49,530 nt of DNA, from sequence record NC_049825.1; one strand, 5' to 3'. Both the position numbers and the translations under genes were made by a program. The notes below the pieces were generated by a model, which made no database searches, had not been told where the DNA came from, and worked only from the letters and a program-made list of their open reading frames with translations. Source of the DNA: Escherichia phage grams. Shown here in pieces: positions 4,276-43,879 of this stretch (the stretch's first letter is position 1; the number at the start of each line of letters is the position of its first letter).

Positions 4276-4319
4276 ATAGCACTTTTTGTCAAAAGTCAAA
4301 AACGATAACCAGGCATAAT
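4274..4319 (+). promoter_or_regulatory. conserved 22-bp element plus -10 (CATAAT)
   Basis: AAATAGCACTTTTTGTCAAAAG-N18-CATAAT; overlaps stop codon TAA of upstream gene. Confidence 0.55.
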
Positions 4320-6331: not shown

Positions 6332-6543
6332 TTGTGACGCACGATGTAGAGCCAGGCGCGAGCACTGCGCAGGACATGGTTTCCGGAATGACGCCAAAAT
6401 CGCACAGAATGGTACGCGTGCGCGGTTATAGCTTCAATGTCTCCCAAACACTCAAGGAGATCTTGGCCTTGCCAGAAGTAGATACAGCTCTTGTGGGTGT
6501 GCATACAAACGAATATGTTTCTTTCCACATTGTGACGAAATAG
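6328..6543 (+). CDS. hypothetical protein (71 aa)
   Basis: ORF; ATGA overlap with upstream gene. Confidence 0.5.
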   Translation: MIVTHDVEPGASTAQDMVSGMTPKSHRMVRVRGYSFNVSQTLKEILALPEVDTALVGVHTNEYVSFHIVTK

Positions 6544-6583
6544 CACTTTTTGTTAAAATAGCTTAACGGGCTTGCTGTATAGT
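6538..6583 (+). promoter_or_regulatory. conserved 22-bp element plus -10 (TATAGT)
   Basis: AAATAGCACTTTTTGTTAAAAT-N18-TATAGT; stop TAG of upstream gene inside element. Confidence 0.55.
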
Positions 6584-8899: not shown

Positions 8900-9208
8900 A
8901 TGGCTAAAAGCAATCGTAAAATGTTGATTAACGCATTCGAAAAGGCAGCACTTGAGCGTGGTTGGAATGACTCATTTCACACAGCAAACTGTATCCGCCG
9001 TTACGGATTCAAGAATTGCCGCTCATGGGCGCGTGAAATGGCTTCATGGTATGATTTTGATGCTCATTATCTTGATATGGATTGCGCCATGGTTGAAATG
9101 GATTGCGCCATGGTTGAAATGATTGAGCAGGCCGCACTAGAGGATCGACCATTAACGCAATCTGATTTTGACGATTTTGTGCGCGATGAAATCTATTACA
9201 TGAGCTAA
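8900..9208 (+). CDS. hypothetical protein (102 aa) containing an in-frame 21-bp tandem duplication
   Basis: ATG at 8900 with RBS AAAGGAGGAAACAAA; duplicated peptide MDCAMVE. Confidence 0.5.
   Translation: MAKSNRKMLINAFEKAALERGWNDSFHTANCIRRYGFKNCRSWAREMASWYDFDAHYLDMDCAMVEMDCAMVEMIEQAALEDRPLTQSDFDDFVRDEIYYMS
9079..9120 (+). repeat. perfect 2 x 21-bp tandem direct repeat inside CDS
   Basis: GGATTGCGCCATGGTTGAAAT repeated twice. Confidence 0.9.
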
Positions 9209-9251
9209 TAGCACTTTTTGTTAAAACTTCCGCGAGGGCATTTGTTAAAGT
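9206..9251 (+). promoter_or_regulatory. conserved 22-bp element plus -10-like TAAAGT
   Basis: TAATAGCACTTTTTGTTAAAAC-N18-TAAAGT (preceded by TG); stop TAA inside element. Confidence 0.5.
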
Positions 9252-11324: not shown

Positions 11325-11846
11325 ATGGCTAAAAACGTTGAGCCAGCAGTAAAGGCTTGCAATTTTAAAAAACTATATAATAAGCAATATGGCGATATAG
11401 CAAAAATGACAAAGGCGCACAAGTACACGCCGGAGCAGGTATTTGATCTGGCTGTTCGTTACTTTACGTGGGCTGAGGAAAACCATATACAGGCTGCGGA
11501 AACGGCATCCTTTCAGGGTGACGTATACGAAAGTAAGATTCACAAGCCGCGCGTGTTCACCTTAAATGGATTCCGCTTATTCGCTGGCCTTTCTGCTTCC
11601 GTGCTTGAAAAATGGCGACGCGAGCCAGGATTCAGCGATGTTATGGACTTTATCGACGGCGTTGTTTACGAGCAAAAATTCCAGCTTGCTGCAAACAATA
11701 TTGTTAACGCCGGATTCATTGGTAAAGAGATCGGCATTGAAAAGCCAGCTACCGTTACCATTGAGAATAACACAAGCGCAAGCGTTGACGCTGTAACGGC
11801 GGAGGAAGTCAAAGAGGCGGTAATTGACATTCTGGAGAAGATATAA
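11325..11846 (+). CDS. terminase small subunit (putative)
   Basis: 173 aa ORF immediately upstream of and overlapping terminase large subunit; RBS AAAGGAGGG; assignment by position and size. Confidence 0.5.
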   Translation: MAKNVEPAVKACNFKKLYNKQYGDIAKMTKAHKYTPEQVFDLAVRYFTWAEENHIQAAETASFQGDVYESKIHKPRVFTLNGFRLFAGLSASVLEKWRREPGFSDVMDFIDGVVYEQKFQLAANNIVNAGFIGKEIGIEKPATVTIENNTSASVDAVTAEEVKEAVIDILEKI

Positions 11847-13414
11847 TGCTGATTTGGGAAGACTTAACAGCGGCGCAGAAACGCGCCGTTAAGGAAATGA
11901 GCGAATATTCATTCGAAAAGATGATCCGCATTTGGTTTCAATTATTGCAAGGTCAGAAATTCTTAGGAAACTGGCATTTCAGCTACCTATGTAGCGAAGT
12001 TGAAAAAATCATCAAAGGCGAGTCACAGAACGTAATTTTCAACATAACGCCAGGCAGCGGTAAAACAGAGATATTCTCGATCCATATGTCACCTTATGCG
12101 TCATTGAAAAGTAAGAAGGTGCGAAATCTTAATCTTTCGTTTAGTGATGGCCTTGTCCAGCAGAATAGTAACCGAATTAAGGAGATTATTGGTTCTCCAG
12201 AATGGCAGGAGCTATGGCCAGGAAAGCTGGCAAAGGCGAGCGCAAAGGATTTGATTGTAACCGATGGCGGCAAGGTTAAGTTACAAGTTAACTCGCGTTC
12301 TATCGGTGGTCAGGTTACTGGTCTGCGTGGCGGCTACATGGACGATGGATTTACTGGTATGCTGGTTCTTGATGATCCAGACAAGCCGGATGACATGCTT
12401 TCTAAGGTGAAGCGCGAAGCCGGACACATGCGCCTAAAGAACACGGTGCGATCGCGTCGAATGAAGGACACAACGCCCATCGTAATGGTCCAGCAACGGC
12501 TACACGTCAATGATTCAACATGGTTCATGACAAACGGCGGCATGGGCGGCATACAGTTTAAGGTGGTTAGTATTCCGGCGCTCGTTACTAAGGAATATCG
12601 CGAAACGCTTCCTGATTGGTTAAAGCCTGAGTTTGATCGCGATGTTTTGTCCAGTAAGCCAGTGATGATTGATGGAGTTGCTCATTATTCATTCTGGCCT
12701 GCTAAGGAAAGCGCGGAGGAATTGCTTGCGCTTCGAAATGCTGATCCGTACACGTTCGCTAGTCAGTATCAGCAACAGCCTGTTGCGCTTGGCGGTAACG
12801 TGTTTAAAACAGAGTGGTTTCAGTATTACGGCAGCAGCGAGAAATGCACGCTACCAAAACCGGATCGCTTTGAATATACATTTATCACGGTTGATACCGC
12901 ACAGAAAACAGGGGATCTTAACGACTACTCCGTGATCTGTTATTGGGGGATGTATAAAGATCGCGTTTACTTCATTGATGGTGTTCGCGGAAAATGGGAA
13001 GCACCAGACCTTGAGACTAATTTTGTTGCGTTCGTTAATCAGTGCTGGAAGCGCAATAAAGAATGCGGAACGTTGCGAAGGATTCATGTTGAAGATAAAT
13101 CGTCTGGCACTGGTTTGATTCAGAGTGCAGCGAAAAAAATAATGATCAAGATCAATCCCGTTCAGCGCGATAAAGACAAGGTTACTCGTGCAATGGACGC
13201 AGCGCCAGTAATGCGCGCCGGACGCGTAGCACTTCCAGAATCGCATCCTATGCTGGCTGAGATACTCGCTGAAGTTGCGGCGTTTACATTCGATGATTCG
13301 CATCCTCATGATGATATTGTTGATAACATCATTGATGCGGTTAACATTGAAATGAACATGGCAGATGATCCGGTAGGAAGAATGAAAAAATTGGCAGGTT
13401 TGCGGAACAAATAG
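11846..13414 (+). CDS. terminase large subunit
   Basis: 522 aa; P-loop ITPGSGKTE; N-terminal ATPase and C-terminal nuclease-sized domains; position before portal. Confidence 0.8.
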   Translation: MLIWEDLTAAQKRAVKEMSEYSFEKMIRIWFQLLQGQKFLGNWHFSYLCSEVEKIIKGESQNVIFNITPGSGKTEIFSIHMSPYASLKSKKVRNLNLSFSDGLVQQNSNRIKEIIGSPEWQELWPGKLAKASAKDLIVTDGGKVKLQVNSRSIGGQVTGLRGGYMDDGFTGMLVLDDPDKPDDMLSKVKREAGHMRLKNTVRSRRMKDTTPIVMVQQRLHVNDSTWFMTNGGMGGIQFKVVSIPALVTKEYRETLPDWLKPEFDRDVLSSKPVMIDGVAHYSFWPAKESAEELLALRNADPYTFASQYQQQPVALGGNVFKTEWFQYYGSSEKCTLPKPDRFEYTFITVDTAQKTGDLNDYSVICYWGMYKDRVYFIDGVRGKWEAPDLETNFVAFVNQCWKRNKECGTLRRIHVEDKSSGTGLIQSAAKKIMIKINPVQRDKDKVTRAMDAAPVMRAGRVALPESHPMLAEILAEVAAFTFDDSHPHDDIVDNIIDAVNIEMNMADDPVGRMKKLAGLRNK

Positions 13415-13482: not shown

Positions 13483-14763
13483 ATGAGTAAATCACGAATC
13501 GTTAAGGCTGACGGCTACAACGAGATCTTTAAAGGCGAGAATTGCAAATCGCGAGTAGAGCAACCATTCTACATGCAGTCAATGCCATACAAGACGCTTG
13601 CTGACTTTTACGAAAAAGATGGCCTGGCAAAAAGGATTATTGACGTAGTGCCAGAGGAAATGGTTTCCCCTGGCTTTACTGTTGACGGCGTGGCAGACGA
13701 GGCAGCATTCCGTTCTTTGTGGGATGAGAAGCGATTGAATGCAAAAATTATTGATGCGCTTTGCTGGTCGCGTTTGTTTGGCGGATCTGCAATCATTGCT
13801 CTTGTTCAGGATGGGCGAGCGCTCAAATCACCTGTAAAGCCTGGTGCCATGTTGGAGGATGTGCGAGTTTACGATCGCTATCAGATTCGCGTTGAAGCGC
13901 GCGAAACTAATCCCCGCAAGGTTCGCTATGGTGAGCCAGTGCTTTACACTGTAACGCCAGGCGGAGACTTGCCGGAATACCAGGTACACTACACGCGCGT
14001 TTGCATTATCGACGGTGAGCGGATACCTAACGCAAAGCGACGCAGCAATGATGGCTGGGGTGAGTCAGTTCTTAACAAGCGACTTGTTGAGGCTATTGTT
14101 GATTATAACTATTGTGAAACATTGGCAACGCAATTATTGCGGCGTAAGCAACAGGCGGTATGGAAGGCTAAAGGACTCGCTGACTTGTGCGATGATGAGG
14201 AAGGTGTTAGCGCGGCACGCCTGAGACTTGCGCAGGTTGACGATGAGGGCGGCGTAGGCAAGGCCATTGGTATTGATGCTGAGGATGAGGAATATGATGT
14301 TCTTAACTCTGACATTAGCGGAGTTGATTCTTTTCTGGAAAAGAAAATGGATCGCATAGTTTCCCTTTCAGGTATTCATGAAATCATCCTGAAAAATAAA
14401 AACGTTGGCGGCGTTAGCGCAAGCCAAAACACGGCGCTTGAAACATTCTATAAACTTATTGAGCGAAAACGCGTTGAGGATTACAAGCCTATCCTTGAAT
14501 TTCTATTGCCGTTCATCATTAGTGAGCAGGAGTGGAGCATTGAGTTTTCACCTTTGAGCGTGCCTAGCGATAAAGATCAGGCTGAAATTCTGAATAAGAA
14601 TATCGACTCAATCAGCAAGGCTATTGATGGTCAGTTCCTTGATGTTGAAGAAGCGCGAGACACGTTGCGAGCAATCGCCCCAAGCGTTAAACTAAAGGAC
14701 ACTAATAAAATCAAGCTGCCGGATCCAACGGAGCCGGAGCCAGGCACACAGGGGAATGAGTAA
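13483..14763 (+). CDS. portal protein
   Basis: 426 aa ORF between terminase and head morphogenesis genes; RBS GGAGGAAAG. Confidence 0.75.
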   Translation: MSKSRIVKADGYNEIFKGENCKSRVEQPFYMQSMPYKTLADFYEKDGLAKRIIDVVPEEMVSPGFTVDGVADEAAFRSLWDEKRLNAKIIDALCWSRLFGGSAIIALVQDGRALKSPVKPGAMLEDVRVYDRYQIRVEARETNPRKVRYGEPVLYTVTPGGDLPEYQVHYTRVCIIDGERIPNAKRRSNDGWGESVLNKRLVEAIVDYNYCETLATQLLRRKQQAVWKAKGLADLCDDEEGVSAARLRLAQVDDEGGVGKAIGIDAEDEEYDVLNSDISGVDSFLEKKMDRIVSLSGIHEIILKNKNVGGVSASQNTALETFYKLIERKRVEDYKPILEFLLPFIISEQEWSIEFSPLSVPSDKDQAEILNKNIDSISKAIDGQFLDVEEARDTLRAIAPSVKLKDTNKIKLPDPTEPEPGTQGNE

Positions 14764-15527
14764 TGAAAGTGAAGGGCGTCGTTAAACAATGGCGCTTTCC
14801 TGAAGCAAGCGAGCGGCAATTTAGCCGCTCAATTCAGGAGGCAATTAGAGATCTTGTAGTTCTCATGCGCAAGCGAACAAAAGCGATGAAGTTTGACGCA
14901 ACAGATAATGAGATCAACAGCGCAGAAGATGAAATTAACAGCCTGGCAACTGACCTTATAGCTGGCATTGTTTCCACTCTTCCTGCAATCGCGTTGACCA
15001 TTTATAAATTCAATGCGAAGCAGTTTATCAATGTTGCCAAGTCAACTGGCGGAAAGGATAATACGGCGGTAATTGTTTTGATCGCTGTTGGCGCTAACGC
15101 TAACGAGGATTGGTATCAGACGCTTTACGGTCAATGGTACGGCCTTACAGAATCATCGCTAAGGAAGTTATTCACAAATATTGTGTCTGACTGGTCAACA
15201 AACATTCGCAATGCAAACTTTCGCGGAAGCAATGATAAACAGGTTAATGATCTTGCAGAAAAGAGATTTGCTGTTTATAGCTCCTGGGGTAAAACTAGAT
15301 CAGAAAACATTATCGGCGCGTGGAATAGTCGCCTGATGCGCCAGCGCCTTTATGATGCTAAGGTGACTCATTATTTCTGGCATGGAATGTTAGATGATAG
15401 AGAGCGCTTGCAGCATGTGTTATGGGAAGGTAAAAGAATAGCGCTTGATGCAATTCATGATTTCCCTGGTGAGCCGTGGGGTTGCCGTTGCTGGGCGATT
15501 CCAGATTGGAATAATAAAGGAGAGTAA
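14763..15527 (+). CDS. head morphogenesis protein (Mu F / SPP1 gp7-like)
   Basis: 254 aa; C-terminal WGCRCW block typical of this family; position after portal. Confidence 0.6.
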   Translation: MKVKGVVKQWRFPEASERQFSRSIQEAIRDLVVLMRKRTKAMKFDATDNEINSAEDEINSLATDLIAGIVSTLPAIALTIYKFNAKQFINVAKSTGGKDNTAVIVLIAVGANANEDWYQTLYGQWYGLTESSLRKLFTNIVSDWSTNIRNANFRGSNDKQVNDLAEKRFAVYSSWGKTRSENIIGAWNSRLMRQRLYDAKVTHYFWHGMLDDRERLQHVLWEGKRIALDAIHDFPGEPWGCRCWAIPDWNNKGE

Positions 15528-15530
15528 TTA

Positions 15531-16643
15531 ATGAAGGCAAAACAAAGATTTGATAGCGTCCAGGTTAAGGCGCATTTTGATGATAATGGCTTTTTAGTGG
15601 ATCGCCCAATTGTGGCGCGAATTGGTTTGCAGGAGTACCGCACACCGTATGGAATCAGACGAGAGTTCCGACCAGCGTCAGAGGTGTTTAAGGCTGATTC
15701 GCTTGCTACGTTCGCAGGCAAGCCGATCACTATCGGTCACGTCACGGTAACGCCAGACAATGCGGATCAGGTTGTTGTTGGTTCATGCGCTGGCGCTGGT
15801 GTTCCAAATGGGATTGGCGTTGAAGTTCCGTTAAGCATTTACTCAAAGCGAGCAATTGAGAGTGCAAAAAAGAAAGACACGGCGGAAATTTCAGTTGGTT
15901 ACACATCGGTTGATATTGACAAGCCAGGCTGGGGTAATAATAAAACTGGTGATTACTTGTTTGAGGAAGACCTCAAGGAAGACTGGAAGCCTGATTCTTC
16001 TGATTGGGTTAAATTTGACGCCATTCAGACGAATATCCGTGTTAATCACATTGCACTTGTCTTTCGTGGTCGTGCTGGCATTGCCAAATTAAATCTTGAT
16101 AGTGAACAGGATTTTCCGTATAGTGACGAGGTTCTAAATGACAAAGGAGATGAGGAAATGACAGTAAAAATTAAACTTGATGGCGCGGTAGAATTTGATG
16201 TTCCAAAGGCCGTTGCTGATCATATTGAGGCGTTAAAGGCAGATGCAAAAGCTGCAACCGAAAAAGCTGATGGCCTTGAGGCAGAGCGCGACGCCCTGAA
16301 AACTAAAGTCGATGGCATTCCGGCGCAGATTGCAGAAGCTGTTAAGAAGGCAAAGACTGACGCAGAAGAACACGCCAAGCTGGTTGCAGATGCAACTGAA
16401 ATTGGCATCAAGTGTGACGGATTGGACGCTAAAGCGATCAAGGTTGCTTACGTCAAAGAAGTCACTGGCGCTGATATTTCAGAAAAAGCCGATGCATATA
16501 TTGAAACAGCTTTTGACCTTGCGAAGCAGTCTGATAAAATGGCGGCGCAGCGTAAATCTGTTAAGGGCGATTCTTTCGAATCTGGCAAGAGTGAAAAAAC
16601 CGACTCCCTTGATCCGACTGCGCGTTTGAAAAAACTTAAATAA
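15531..16643 (+). CDS. scaffolding / prohead core protein (putative)
   Basis: 370 aa with long C-terminal coiled-coil-like Ala/Lys/Glu-rich region; position between portal-associated gene and capsid genes. Confidence 0.5.
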   Translation: MKAKQRFDSVQVKAHFDDNGFLVDRPIVARIGLQEYRTPYGIRREFRPASEVFKADSLATFAGKPITIGHVTVTPDNADQVVVGSCAGAGVPNGIGVEVPLSIYSKRAIESAKKKDTAEISVGYTSVDIDKPGWGNNKTGDYLFEEDLKEDWKPDSSDWVKFDAIQTNIRVNHIALVFRGRAGIAKLNLDSEQDFPYSDEVLNDKGDEEMTVKIKLDGAVEFDVPKAVADHIEALKADAKAATEKADGLEAERDALKTKVDGIPAQIAEAVKKAKTDAEEHAKLVADATEIGIKCDGLDAKAIKVAYVKEVTGADISEKADAYIETAFDLAKQSDKMAAQRKSVKGDSFESGKSEKTDSLDPTARLKKLK

Positions 16644-16655
16644 GGAGAAATAAAC

Positions 16656-17168
16656 ATGGCTACAATTGGAGCAAGTTATTTTGCTGTAATGTCTCGTGCG
16701 TTACCTGGTCAGGTTTCTGACACTTCAGCTTATAATATTGATGGCGCTTGTGTTCTTGAGAATGCGGCAGGCAATCAGAATCAGTCTGTTTTTGTTGGTG
16801 TGGCGGTCCAGCATGGCGGCGTTGATGCTATGGGCAATAAGCTAATTAAGCCGATGGCGGCAAGCGGCAAGGCTTACGGCGTTGCAATTCGATCTCACTT
16901 TCAGACAACTTCGTCTGACGGTCGAATGATTTATGAATCTGGCGGCGGAATCAACGTAATGACTGAGGGGCGTGTTTGGATGTTGGCTAAAGACGCTTCC
17001 GCTCCAGCGTTCGGCGCTACAATCAAACTTTCTGATGATGGTCAGGTTGATACCGCGTCTGGCACTATCGAAACAAACTGGATCGCGACTGGTGATTTCA
17101 CCGAGTTTCAAGGCTTGAAGCTGGTAGAGGTTCAGGTGCAAAAAGTTCCGGCAGTTTCAGCAGGTTAA
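16656..17168 (+). CDS. capsid-associated protein, paralogue 1 (decoration-like)
   Basis: 170 aa; shares GVAV...RG-VW...G-I-TG pattern with next gene. Confidence 0.4.
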   Translation: MATIGASYFAVMSRALPGQVSDTSAYNIDGACVLENAAGNQNQSVFVGVAVQHGGVDAMGNKLIKPMAASGKAYGVAIRSHFQTTSSDGRMIYESGGGINVMTEGRVWMLAKDASAPAFGATIKLSDDGQVDTASGTIETNWIATGDFTEFQGLKLVEVQVQKVPAVSAG

Positions 17169-17175
17169 TAAATAT

Positions 17176-17199
17176 GGCGCTCACTGAGCGCCTTTTTTA
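17176..17199 (+). terminator. intrinsic terminator
   Basis: GGCGCTCACTGAGCGCC plus T6. Confidence 0.7.
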
Positions 17200-17213
17200 T
17201 ATTTGGGGTTATC

Positions 17214-17648
17214 ATGAGTGATTATTCAGTCATTGTTGGCGCTGAGTCGCCAGGGTGCATGGTCGATTCTTCAATAATGGTGATTAACGGATCTTTCGTG
17301 TGCGGAGATGAATTTATTGCGCCAGGTAAGATTGTGCGACTATCACATATAATAAATGGATACAAAATAGCAAGTGTTAATGGGGATCTTGTTATTGGCG
17401 TGGCAGTAAGGCCGCCGGACTCGTGCATATATGAGGAGGGTGATCCCGTTAATGTGGTTAGTAGAGGTAGTGTGTGGTGCTTAACTTCTGAGAGCGAAGC
17501 GCCAGAATATGGAGATAAAGTATTTGTAACGCAAGATGGAGATGCGGCATACAGTGAAGGCGACTTGCTGAGCGGTTGGATCTTTACTGGCGAACATGTA
17601 AAGGTTGATCATGATTCATATATTGTCGGGGTAAGCATTAGCGCATAA
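17214..17648 (+). CDS. capsid-associated protein, paralogue 2
   Basis: 144 aa; paralogous to 16656..17168. Confidence 0.4.
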   Translation: MSDYSVIVGAESPGCMVDSSIMVINGSFVCGDEFIAPGKIVRLSHIINGYKIASVNGDLVIGVAVRPPDSCIYEEGDPVNVVSRGSVWCLTSESEAPEYGDKVFVTQDGDAAYSEGDLLSGWIFTGEHVKVDHDSYIVGVSISA

Positions 17649-17665
17649 CACAAAATTATGTTGCA

Positions 17666-17687
17666 CGTTTAACAAAAAATGCTATCA
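17666..17687 (-). promoter_or_regulatory. conserved element in orientation opposite to flanking late genes
   Basis: Plus strand reads GTTTAACAAAAAATGCTATCA; no well-spaced -10 on minus strand. Confidence 0.35.
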
Positions 17688-17731
17688 TTGTGGCGTTACA
17701 TACTAACAGCCTTTATATATGGAGGGAGAAA

Positions 17732-18706
17732 ATGGAAAAAGAAAAATTTGATCAGCTAGATGCGGATATTGTTTCTAGCTATCTGGCTACTCGCGGCGTT
17801 AAGGGTGATGCTTCTGATATGGGTATCTGGACGGCGCAAGAGCTTCACAAGATCCGCTCAACTGCTTACGAGAAAGAATATCCGGCAGGTTCAGCGCTTC
17901 GTGTATTCCCTGTAACTAATGAGCTTTCTGATACTGATAAGACTTTTGAATATCAGATGTTTGACAAGGTTGGTTACGCAAAAATTATCGCTGATTACAC
18001 CGACGATCTGCCGACCGTTGACGCGCTGATGTCCAGCGAATTTGGTAAAGTGTTCCGCTTGGGTAACGCGTTCTTGATCTCCATTGACGAAATCAAGGCT
18101 GGTCAGCGCACTGGTAAGAGCCTTTCCACTCGCAAGGCAAACGCAGCGCAAAACGCTCATGATCAGGAAGTTAACCGCCTGGTGTTTAAGGGTTCAAAGC
18201 CGCATAAGATTCTTTCGGTGTTTGAGCACCCTAACCTGACAAAGATCGTGTCAACTGGCTGGTTAAGTGCTGATGAAAACACTAAGTTCCCGCAGGCAGC
18301 ATCTGATGAACTGGAAAAGGCTATTGAAACCATTCAGACCATCACCAATGGTCAGCACCGCGCAACCAATATCCTGATTCCGCCGTCTATGCGCAAGGTT
18401 CTTTCCGTTCGAATGGAAAACACCACTGAAAGTTATCTGGAATACTTCCAGAAACAAAACAGCGGAATCACCATTGACTCAATCGCAGAGCTTGAGGATA
18501 TTGACGGCACAGGAACGAAAGGTTGTCTGGTATATGAGAAAGACCCGATGAACATGTCGATCGAAATTCCAGAAGCATTTAACATGCTTCCTGCGCAACC
18601 AAAAGATCTGCATTTCAAAGTTCCGTGTACTTCAAAATGTACTGGCCTGACGATTTACCGTCCGTTTACGCTAGTGCTTATTACTGGCTTGAAAAAATCA
18701 GGTTAA
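17732..18706 (+). CDS. major capsid protein (putative)
   Basis: 324 aa; strong RBS GGAGGGAG; position after scaffold and before head-tail genes. Confidence 0.6.
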   Translation: MEKEKFDQLDADIVSSYLATRGVKGDASDMGIWTAQELHKIRSTAYEKEYPAGSALRVFPVTNELSDTDKTFEYQMFDKVGYAKIIADYTDDLPTVDALMSSEFGKVFRLGNAFLISIDEIKAGQRTGKSLSTRKANAAQNAHDQEVNRLVFKGSKPHKILSVFEHPNLTKIVSTGWLSADENTKFPQAASDELEKAIETIQTITNGQHRATNILIPPSMRKVLSVRMENTTESYLEYFQKQNSGITIDSIAELEDIDGTGTKGCLVYEKDPMNMSIEIPEAFNMLPAQPKDLHFKVPCTSKCTGLTIYRPFTLVLITGLKKSG

Positions 18707-18719
18707 TCGTATAACATTG

Positions 18720-18748
18720 GGGAATCCTTAACTTGATTCCCTTTTTTA
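18720..18748 (+). terminator. intrinsic terminator
   Basis: GGGAATC...GATTCCC plus T6. Confidence 0.7.
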
Positions 18749-18762
18749 TTGGAGGTTATGAA

Positions 18763-19035
18763 ATGGCTAAAGAAAAAACTGTAACGCTAAAGGTTTCCGG
18801 CGTGTGCCTTATCATTGTTGATGGTGAGCATTATCATCCAGGCAAAGAGTTTGACGTAGAAGAATCAAAATTGAAAACAAGCGCGTTTGAATATCTAATT
18901 GCAAAAGGCGATCTGGAGGTTAAAGACAACTCCGCATTGAACGAAGAAATCAAACAGAGCGCAGCAAGCAAACGTAAAAAAGACCCGCGAGAGGGCAAGA
19001 GCAAAGCCGAACTTGAAGACGGCGGCATCTATTAA
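18763..19035 (+). CDS. hypothetical structural protein (90 aa)
   Basis: ATG with RBS GGAGG. Confidence 0.45.
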
Positions 19036-19082
19036 TAAAGAGGGCGCTTATAGCGCCCTTTGTCATATCTGGAGGAAACAAA

Positions 19083-19499
19083 ATGGTTGATGAATTTTTC
19101 ACTGACGCAGAAATCACGCAGCAAATCGTAAAATTAGCGCCACCGATGAAGCAGATTGATCCAGATTTAATGGTGGCATGGATTGAGCTTGCAAAGGAAT
19201 TTGTTTGCAAGAAGCGGTTTAAAGAGTCATATCCTAAAGCGGTTGCTCTTTATACGTTGCACCTTATGACGCTTGATGGAGCCATGAAGCAAGAAGGGGA
19301 AAGCGTAGAAAGTTACTCGCGGCGAGTTGCGTCATTTTCCCTGACTGGTGAATTTAGCCAGACTTTTGATCGAGTGTCAGGCGACTCTGGCGGAAAAGAG
19401 ATTAGACAAACTCCCTGGGGGAAAATGTACGAAACGCTAAATCGTAAGAAAGGCGGTGGATTTGGCCTTGTGACTGGATTCCGGAGGCGCTGCAAATGA
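19083..19499 (+). CDS. head-tail connector protein (putative)
   Basis: 138 aa, position in head-tail joining cluster. Confidence 0.4.
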
Positions 19500-40268: not shown

Positions 40269-40314
40269 CAATAGCATTTTTTGTTAAACGATGATTTAAT
40301 GATTGTGTATTATA
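40269..40314 (+). promoter_or_regulatory. conserved element (variant) plus -10 (TATTAT) for helicase operon
   Basis: CAATAGCATTTTTTGTTAAACG-N17-TATTAT. Confidence 0.5.
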
Positions 40315-42392: not shown

Positions 42393-42798
42393 TAAAGGCG
42401 ATTATCTGGAGTTTTACGAAAGAGATCCGACAGATACGCTAAAAGAGGAATCTCACCAGATCGGGGCGTTTCAATGGTTAACTTATGCTCATCCTGAATT
42501 ACTGGCATGGCATACGAAAAACGAGGGCGACAAGGGGATCGCCACCGCAATGATGGATCAGCAAGCTGGGCTTGTTAAGGGCGTAAGTGATTTTATCATC
42601 CTGATTGGATTAAAAGGTCGTTACCCGTTCGCGGCAATTGAGATGAAGCGCGTCAATAAGTCCGGCAAGGGTAAGGCTTCACCAGTCAGCAAGGACCAAA
42701 AAGCCTTCTTGCGTCGTGTGCGTGAGCTTGGCGGATTCGCTGCCGTAACATACGGATATAAGCAATTCATGATCGCGGTAGAATACATGATGAAATAG
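42379..42798 (+). CDS. VRR-NUC domain nuclease
   Basis: 139 aa; SDFIILIG...AIEMK block fits PD-(D/E)XK of VRR-NUC; overlaps helicase stop. Confidence 0.55.
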   Translation: MAMTDKGDYLEFYERDPTDTLKEESHQIGAFQWLTYAHPELLAWHTKNEGDKGIATAMMDQQAGLVKGVSDFIILIGLKGRYPFAAIEMKRVNKSGKGKASPVSKDQKAFLRRVRELGGFAAVTYGYKQFMIAVEYMMK

Positions 42799-42838
42799 CA
42801 CTTTTTGTTAAAACAGGCGCGAAGGATTGCGCCATAAT
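42793..42838 (+). promoter_or_regulatory. conserved 22-bp element plus -10 (CATAAT)
   Basis: AAATAGCACTTTTTGTTAAAAC-N18-CATAAT; spacer contains GGCGC...GCGCC dyad; stop TAG inside element. Confidence 0.55.
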
Positions 42839-43578: not shown

Positions 43579-43836
43579 ATGCAGAAAGAAAGAAGAGTTT
43601 TACTTAATGAAGATGGCGAATTTCTTTTGTATCGCGCTATGGTATGCGATGCACTTGATAAAAACCCTAACGTGAAAAAGATGATTGATTGCGATCCGTG
43701 GGAATTTTCAAGCGCATTAGATATGAGCTTTGAGGAGACAAAAAAACTCCCGCTTGAAAAATGGCACGAACAAATCAGAAATGACATGCAAGAATTTGTC
43801 GATTCTTGGAATTTTAAGAACGGAATGATCCACTAA
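43579..43836 (+). CDS. hypothetical protein (85 aa)
   Basis: Internal ATG of track ORF with RBS GGAGC. Confidence 0.45.
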   Translation: MQKERRVLLNEDGEFLLYRAMVCDALDKNPNVKKMIDCDPWEFSSALDMSFEETKKLPLEKWHEQIRNDMQEFVDSWNFKNGMIH

Positions 43837-43879
43837 TAGCACTTTTTGTTAAAACGCCCGGCCTTGTGTCGGGCATAAT
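43834..43879 (+). promoter_or_regulatory. conserved 22-bp element plus -10 (CATAAT)
   Basis: TAATAGCACTTTTTGTTAAAAC-N18-CATAAT; spacer GCCCG...CGGGC dyad; stop TAA inside element. Confidence 0.55.

Follow-up and report, generated by a model that had tools for sequence, protein, structure and literature searches.

What are the two similar genes that stand in tandem, with a transcription terminator between them, upstream of the major capsid gene of Escherichia phage grams, and why are there two of them? The window, by which we mean the whole stretch of 49,530 nucleotides analysed here (sequence record NC_049825.1), had been annotated in a preliminary description made from its letters alone. That description took the pair for duplicated decoration or cementing proteins, which might give two distinct surface proteins or differ in expression level, and named pairwise alignment and structure prediction as ways of checking this. 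A 3.3-kb stretch around the two genes shares 99.5% identity with Escherichia phages BEK12A and BEK26 and 97-99% with many other members of Hanrivervirus (Drexlerviridae, Tempevirinae), and the window is assigned by its sequence to this genus of T1-like coliphages.

Identity of the two genes

Both reading frames lie on the plus strand exactly where the preliminary description had put them, and the flanking genes, which it had taken for scaffold and major capsid genes, are also confirmed: a DUF2213 protease with a scaffold-like tail lies upstream and a PF09950 capsid gene downstream. The features of the region are as follows; p1 and p2 denote the first and second cement genes of a locus or their products, and SD a Shine-Dalgarno sequence.

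11846-13414: terminase large subunit
13483-14763: portal
14763-15527: Mu-F-like head morphogenesis protein
15531-16643, plus strand: head-maturation protease, DUF2213 with a C-terminal coiled-coil scaffold-like tail (Pfam DUF2213, E 8e-27; PHROG 530 'head maturation protease', E 3e-111)
16642-16647, plus strand: SD of ORF1, AAGGAG, 8 nt before the ATG (SD:anti-SD duplex -9.3 kcal/mol)
16656-17168, plus strand: ORF1 (p1), 170 aa, predicted gp49-type main trimeric cement protein
17176-17198, plus strand: intrinsic terminator, 7-bp stem with 6 G-C pairs, 3-nt loop, T6 tail
17205-17208, plus strand: weak SD-like GGGG before ORF2 (duplex -5.4 kcal/mol)
17214-17648, plus strand: ORF2 (p2), 144 aa, predicted gp48-type cement paralogue without BIG2
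17661-17688, plus strand: promoter-like block before the capsid gene, conserved across lineages, putative function
17692-17711, plus strand: small hairpin in the capsid-gene leader (RNAalifold, 18 lineages)
17721-17728, plus strand: strong SD of the capsid gene, GGAGGGAG (duplex -9.8 kcal/mol)
17732-18706, plus strand: major capsid protein, HK97 fold, PF09950, T1 gp47 orthologue (Pfam E 8e-54; PHROG 264, E 1e-99)
18763-19035: DUF7444 protein

The pair is thus placed in the head module, in the order protease, ORF1, ORF2 and major capsid protein. The position of the protease gene matches T1 ST50 and its product is the T1 gp50 orthologue; relatives label this gene 'capsid and scaffold' or 'prohead protease'. 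The capsid-gene ATG at 17732 is homologous to the annotated start in relatives, and the head-tail adaptor and tail genes come after the DUF7444 gene. The latter is flanked by terminator-like hairpins at 18719-18750 and 19041-19059, annotated likewise in T1 and G29-2; the head module is made up of several short transcription units.

Judged by sequence, ORF1 and ORF2 are the products of an old tandem duplication that have since diverged. The alignment of the two proteins is significant (BLASTP E 1e-12, 34% identity over 59 aa) and confirms the proposed duplication, at an identity of ~26-34%. Both proteins match the Pfam families Phage_cement (PF22758; E 3e-26 and 92.7 bits for ORF1, E 2e-14 and 54.2 bits for ORF2) and XM1_gp53 (PF23982; E 5e-18 and 65.7 bits for ORF1, E 4e-25 and 89.0 bits for ORF2), each with a gathering cut-off of 27, and both alike match PHROG 1989; no other Pfam family besides these two was matched by either protein at E up to 1. 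A four-way alignment of ORF1, ORF2, T1 gp49 and T1 gp48 contains 29 invariant columns. The motif on which the preliminary description had based the relationship holds in part: the G-x-VW (EGRVW / RGSVW) and W-I-x-T-G elements are homologous, but 'GVAV' was read out of register, as the GVAV of ORF2 aligns with GVAI at residues 75-78 of ORF1 and not with the GVAV at its residues 48-51.

ORF1 can be identified as the orthologue of T1 gp49 and of 'cement protein II' of phage FCWL1, that is, as the main cement protein. Its residues 1-162 match the PDB 9KZJ/9KMG chain ('cement protein II' / decoration protein) with an E value of 1e-44. Identity to T1 gp49 is 54%, ORF1 differing from it by a 6-residue insertion and a C-terminus that is 7 residues longer. 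The AF2 model of ORF1 has a pLDDT of 85, and its best Foldseek matches are the FCWL1 protein and T1 gp49, with TM scores of 0.8-0.9.

ORF2 is assignable to the gp48 lineage, as a paralogue corresponding to the N-terminal cement domain of gp48. Its sequence matches include a gp49-type PDB chain (E 2.5e-11), 9KZJ_H, which is T1 gp48, a 255-aa 'BIG2 domain-containing protein' (E 7e-10), and 'decoration protein gp29' of FCWL1 in 9KMH (E 1e-9); ORF2 aligns over its full length with the gp48 N-domain, at ~32% identity. Further gp48-lineage traits are its grouping with second-position proteins in the tree, its shorter N-arm and its faster evolution. Only 12 residues precede the PG motif in ORF2, and likewise in T1 gp48, as against 15-16 in p1. 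The AF2 model reaches a pLDDT of 76, with a core above 80 and a disordered N-arm, and the best Foldseek matches are the FCWL1 and T1 cement chains, followed by Pam3 gp6 and XM1.

Structure prediction likewise agrees with the preliminary description, since both predicted structures match beta-tulip-type cement chains. Against the cement chains of T1, FCWL1, Pam3, XM1 and E217, both AF2 models give a Foldseek probability of 1.00 and TM scores of 0.57-0.9; for both, E217 gp24, Pam3 gp6 and XM1 rank after the T1 and FCWL1 chains (entries 8HDT_G, 7KMX_a and 8FRS_f were matched). The matches of both proteins to the T1 and FCWL1 capsids, in sequence and in predicted fold, bear out a decoration or cementing role.

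The most conspicuous difference concerns the C-terminus. In T1 gp48, Pfam places Phage_cement at residues 8-143 and Big_2 at 176-240, with a proline-rich linker between the two. ORF2 has no Pfam match to Big_2 and ends at the cement-domain boundary, and no Ig-like remnant was found after it, the 83 nt to the capsid gene being taken up by the conserved promoter-like block.

Public annotation of these proteins is heterogeneous. Orthologues bear the misleading GenBank name 'putative zonula occludens toxin' in vojen, egaa, herni and slyngel, and 'scaffolding protein' in SECphi27 and JLBYU38; phiE31-2 uses 'major capsid protein', and it calls a product of 130 aa that lacks BIG2 a 'BIG2 domain-containing protein'. 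Labels of this kind, or 'hypothetical protein', stand on cement orthologues in dozens of Drexlerviridae records. Renaming is now possible, as cement protein (gp49-type) and minor cement protein (gp48-type, without Ig domain). T1-like head genes also occur in about 20 records named 'Campylobacter phage' (for instance MG065637 A15b and MG065669 A123) and in Streptococcus phage MBBL140 (OR786094); A15b has a match to ORF2 with 96.5% identity at the protein level. Since T1-like phages are notorious for contaminating laboratories, the Campylobacter and Streptococcus host labels are probably wrong.

Copy number and domain content in related loci

We surveyed 78 related IMG/VR loci using an HMM built from the four-protein alignment, leaving out two loci with frameshifts (L033, L057) and two cut by contig ends (L039, L046). 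Two tandem cement genes occur in every intact locus in which the identity of the first gene to ORF1 reaches 45% or more (50/50). A single cement gene is present in 24 more distant loci, Rtp-like and others, and in most of these the capsid gene starts ~110 nt after it. The phage records DTL and IME253 likewise gave one match each to ORF2. On a neighbour-joining (NJ) tree p1 is monophyletic, single-copy proteins are closer to p1, and p2 proteins occupy long branches. Mean pairwise identity is 0.40 for p2 versus 0.62 for p1, with p2 below p1 in 97% of genome pairs, and the N-arm of p2 is consistently shorter across loci, by ~4 aa. Seven of the single-copy loci (L063, L065, L067, L068, L069, L071 and L076) have 0.4-2.3 kb of extra DNA between the cement and capsid genes, at the site that is the slot of p2 in T1-like phages; this DNA may hold homing endonucleases or another decoration gene.

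The second gene varies widely in length among the 50 two-copy loci, from 143-168 aa (no extra domain) to 250-270 aa (one Ig-like domain) and, in one case, 338 aa. Wherever the C-terminal domain is present it is homologous: all 21 distinct long p2 forms match the T1 extension. Long and short forms are interspersed on the NJ tree, short forms occurring in several independent lineages, and two of the short forms (L030, L035) keep a stub of the linker. The simplest reading of these sequences is that the ancestral p2 had a BIG2 domain that was lost several times, including in the lineage of the window. The domain itself shows further variation. The 338-aa p2 (L047, 4040-5056), from a T1-clade relative, has a 193-aa C-terminal extension with apparently two tandem Ig-like domains, and in L044 the p2 C-terminal domain contains an 11-residue internal repeat, KPDNATNKTGVW, present twice.

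Signals around the second gene

The intrinsic terminator that the preliminary description had seen between the genes is well supported. It consists of GGCGCTC-ACT-GAGCGCC at 17176-17192 followed by T6, with a minimum free energy of -13.3 kcal/mol (z -5.2) that none of 200 shuffled sequences equalled. A terminator is annotated at the homologous place in T1 (14235-14267) and in G29-2, and a hairpin with a T-run separates p1 from p2 in all 50 intact two-copy loci. The stem sequences differ between lineages (examples are GGCGCTC, GGCCGGA, GGGACTATCC, AAAGGCTCC and AAGCCGTTC), and different stems at a conserved position argue for selection on function, not sequence. As for translation, the SD:anti-SD duplex of p2 in the window (-5.4 kcal/mol) compares with -9.3 for p1 and -9.8 for the capsid gene. 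The AAGGAG of p1 is strong and nearly invariant across loci; the SD of p2 is weaker than that of p1 in only 76% of 38 distinct loci.

Downstream of ORF2, the promoter-like block is composed of TTGCAC, a 16-nt spacer and TGcTATCAT, an extended -10 element. It hardly varies between loci in which protein identity has fallen to 32-54%, and homologous blocks are found in T1 (TTGACG...TGcTATTAT) and in Rtp-like phages, with the consensus extended -10 TGTATAAT. A consensus promoter scan of the window did not list this block, because its -35 matches at only 3/6 positions; it was found by reading and by conservation. We infer that it acts as a promoter, a function that is not secure, because the scan missed it and because most other copies of a motif that it contains are antisense to neighbouring genes. 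In single-copy relatives where the genes abut, the order is cement gene, terminator, promoter block and capsid gene. Two-copy phages carry p2 in the gap between terminator and block.

With a terminator before it and a promoter-like block after it, ORF2 would therefore lie in a pocket of low expression. ORF1 would be translated from a strong ribosome-binding site ahead of a strong terminator, and ORF2, with its weak site, would be made mainly by read-through. Differential expression via the terminator, which the preliminary description had raised, is plausible and supported by conservation, and the gene layout probably sets the ORF1:ORF2 ratio.

The motif in question, TTTAACAAAAARTGCTAT, is 18 nt long and lies within the block at 17668-17685. 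With up to 2 mismatches it occurs 14 times in the window, against 0.05 copies expected.

Plus strand, copies of TTTAACAAAAARTGCTAT at: 383, 2238, 3115, 17668, 21428, 32248, 47070, 49237
Minus strand, copies of TTTAACAAAAARTGCTAT at: 4276-4293, 6540-6557, 9208-9225, 40271-40288, 42795-42812, 43836-43853

T1 has 11 copies, some of them syntenic (before the capsid gene, after the major tail gene). The motif resembles an A-tract plus an extended -10 element. Copies are in sense orientation in the structural block; in the early-gene blocks they are mostly intergenic and antisense to genes, several of them directly adjoining a stop codon (their reverse complement starts with A-TAG). The motif could represent a class of phage promoters, a site bound by a regulator or another kind of element; a literal literature search for it returned nothing relevant.

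Directly after the -10 element, the leader hairpin at 17692-17711 has 9 pairs, 6 of which show compensatory double changes (RNAalifold, 18 lineages). Taken alone, the window hairpin is weak (-5.4 kcal/mol, z -1.05), and an Rfam scan of 16400-19200 gave no match. A transcription start ~7 nt past the -10 would land in its 5' arm, and a T-run follows it in some lineages and is absent in others. The hairpin may stabilise the 5' end of the capsid mRNA, or it may halt transcripts that arrive by read-through. A function as terminator of the ORF2 transcript was considered and not adopted, the T-run being missing in several lineages.

Probable capsid role and comparison with known systems

The head of T1, solved by cryo-EM (Viruses 2025, PMC11945409, PDB 9KZJ), has T=7 symmetry and 415 copies of the capsid protein gp47. 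It is decorated by 80 gp49 homotrimers and 60 heterotrimers of one gp48 and two gp49, with copy numbers of 360 for gp49 and 60 for gp48, both proteins having a beta-tulip fold (PMC11945409). The N-arm of gp49 is embedded in the inner capsid surface and gp48 is on the outside only; the C-terminal domain of gp48 is protruding and flexible, the authors' proposal being that it assists adsorption (PMC11945409).

By homology, ORF1 and ORF2 are likely to serve the window phage, a T1-like siphophage, as its two cement proteins, ORF1 being the abundant one and ORF2 a minor subunit of mixed trimers, in a ratio set by the gene layout. ORF1, like gp49, would form beta-tulip trimers at the three-fold and quasi-three-fold positions of a T=7 HK97-fold head, its N-terminal arm tucked between capsid subunits. 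ORF2, like the gp48 N-domain, would take the place of one ORF1 subunit in a subset of the trimers, as a minimal version without the outward-facing Ig-like (BIG2) domain of T1 gp48. The heterotrimers and their stoichiometry in the window phage are extrapolated from T1, as is the presence of ORF2 in particles. Low expression of ORF2 would fit the 6:1 stoichiometry of T1, in which p2 is needed at one sixth of p1. The suggestion of two distinct surface proteins in the preliminary description stands insofar as both are on the T1 capsid, in 360 and 60 copies, but the T1 pair co-assembles in heterotrimers and does not form separate decorations.

The mixed trimers of T1 lie on quasi-three-fold axes, with 2 heterotrimers and 4 homotrimers per hexon according to the legend of Figure 2 (PMC11945409). 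For FCWL1, the portal-vertex PDB model contains five gp48-like chains, and in the icosahedral capsid entry the gp49-like protein is the only one of the two listed. On a T=7 lattice, exactly two three-fold sites per hexon adjoin a penton. Because this hexon geometry and the five FCWL1 chains fit, a placement of the 60 mixed trimers in rings around the five-fold vertices is consistent with the data, a point that the T1 authors do not state.

The FCWL1 entries, with the gp48-like protein in the portal-vertex model and not in the icosahedral one, and the strong divergence of ORF2 from ORF1 could also suggest that ORF2 is on the capsid without mixing with ORF1, as homotrimers of its own or at a special site such as the portal vertex only. 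We consider this unlikely: the T1 model has one gp48 chain per asymmetric unit, together with two gp49 in each of the 60 heterotrimers, and five gp48-like chains per vertex are what 60 vertex-adjacent heterotrimers would give. It is more unlikely still that ORF2 is a decaying gp48-like remnant that has lost its Ig-like domain and any role in the virion. Its lack of the BIG2 domain of T1 gp48, its location behind a terminator, its weak ribosome-binding site and its faster evolution relative to ORF1 all agree with decay, but its 144-aa frame is preserved intact by all Hanriverviruses examined and across over 20 protein clusters, short p2 forms persist in several independent lineages, and its predicted core fold is confident. 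Furthermore, dN/dS among Hanriverviruses is 0.14 for ORF1 and 0.17 for ORF2, the latter value indicating purifying selection and therefore a working gene and no relic; a pseudogene was rejected on this ratio and on conservation. That the duplicates are redundant alternatives for different conditions or hosts, as their common fold and family and a terminator that could in principle be regulated might suggest, is most improbable given that p1 and p2 stand side by side in 50/50 two-copy loci with consistent N-arm and rate differences, and that the T1 particle uses both proteins together.

Why, then, would a minor subunit of mixed trimers be retained after the loss of its Ig-like domain? We tentatively propose, as a reading with a slightly less than even chance, that p2 is kept for its cement core and not for Ig display, as BIG2 has been lost repeatedly and the core is under purifying selection. 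The core would allow a mixed trimer of distinct geometry to occupy a single class of quasi-three-fold sites, probably near the five-fold vertices, and the terminator-p2-promoter layout would fix a ratio of about 6:1. Variants of p2 with and without the Ig-like domain constitute a natural test of the job of the minor subunit, in capsid geometry and stability or in adsorption. The environmental robustness of T1-like phages is well known (PMC13164509), and capsid cementing could contribute to it.

The existence of a two-paralogue cement pair is largely known from the 2025 cryo-EM study of T1 (PMC11945409). The window pair agrees, at the sequence level, with every test of the cement family and of a T1-type system except the BIG2 domain of p2. 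Modest additions, not described before in the literature searched, are the survey of phages with one or two copies, the recurrent loss of the Ig-like domain with a core under purifying selection, and the conserved terminator/p2/promoter layout. The same literature yielded no virion proteomics or structure for a Hanrivervirus, and cement or decoration proteins go unmentioned in the KanT1 paper. In a full-text search on PDB codes, 9KMG and 9KMH were uncited and the sole paper reached, through 9KZJ, was the T1 study; a search for the name FCWL1 found one unrelated paper only.

Among known systems, T1 is the closest guide. Its gene order is that of the window (gp50 protease, gp49, annotated terminator, gp48, gp47), and because of this common layout and of the sequence and fold matches, ORF1 is placed as a gp49 orthologue and ORF2 in the gp48 lineage. 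T1 and FCWL1 (PDB 9KMG/9KMH) have the same Pfam families, and the window models superpose on their solved chains. The p2 N-arm of T1 is shorter than the p1 arm, as in the window. The difference lies in gp48, which has 255 aa with a proline-rich linker and BIG2, whereas ORF2 has 144 aa and the cement domain only. Pseudomonas phage E217 gp24, cyanophage Pam3 gp6 and Vibrio phage XM1 gp53 have the same families, predicted folds and adjacency to the capsid gene; these phages have a single cement gene, whereas the window phage has two diverged copies. Lambda gpD and TW1 gp56 likewise stabilise an HK97-fold T=7 head as trimers on its three-fold positions, and the T1 paper regards the fold of this type as analogous (PMC11945409). 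TW1 is among the weak Foldseek matches of the ORF1 model. Lambda gpD and TW1 gp56 have no detectable sequence similarity to the window proteins, and they are single-gene homotrimers bound on the outside only, in contrast to T1 gp49 with its embedded N-arm.
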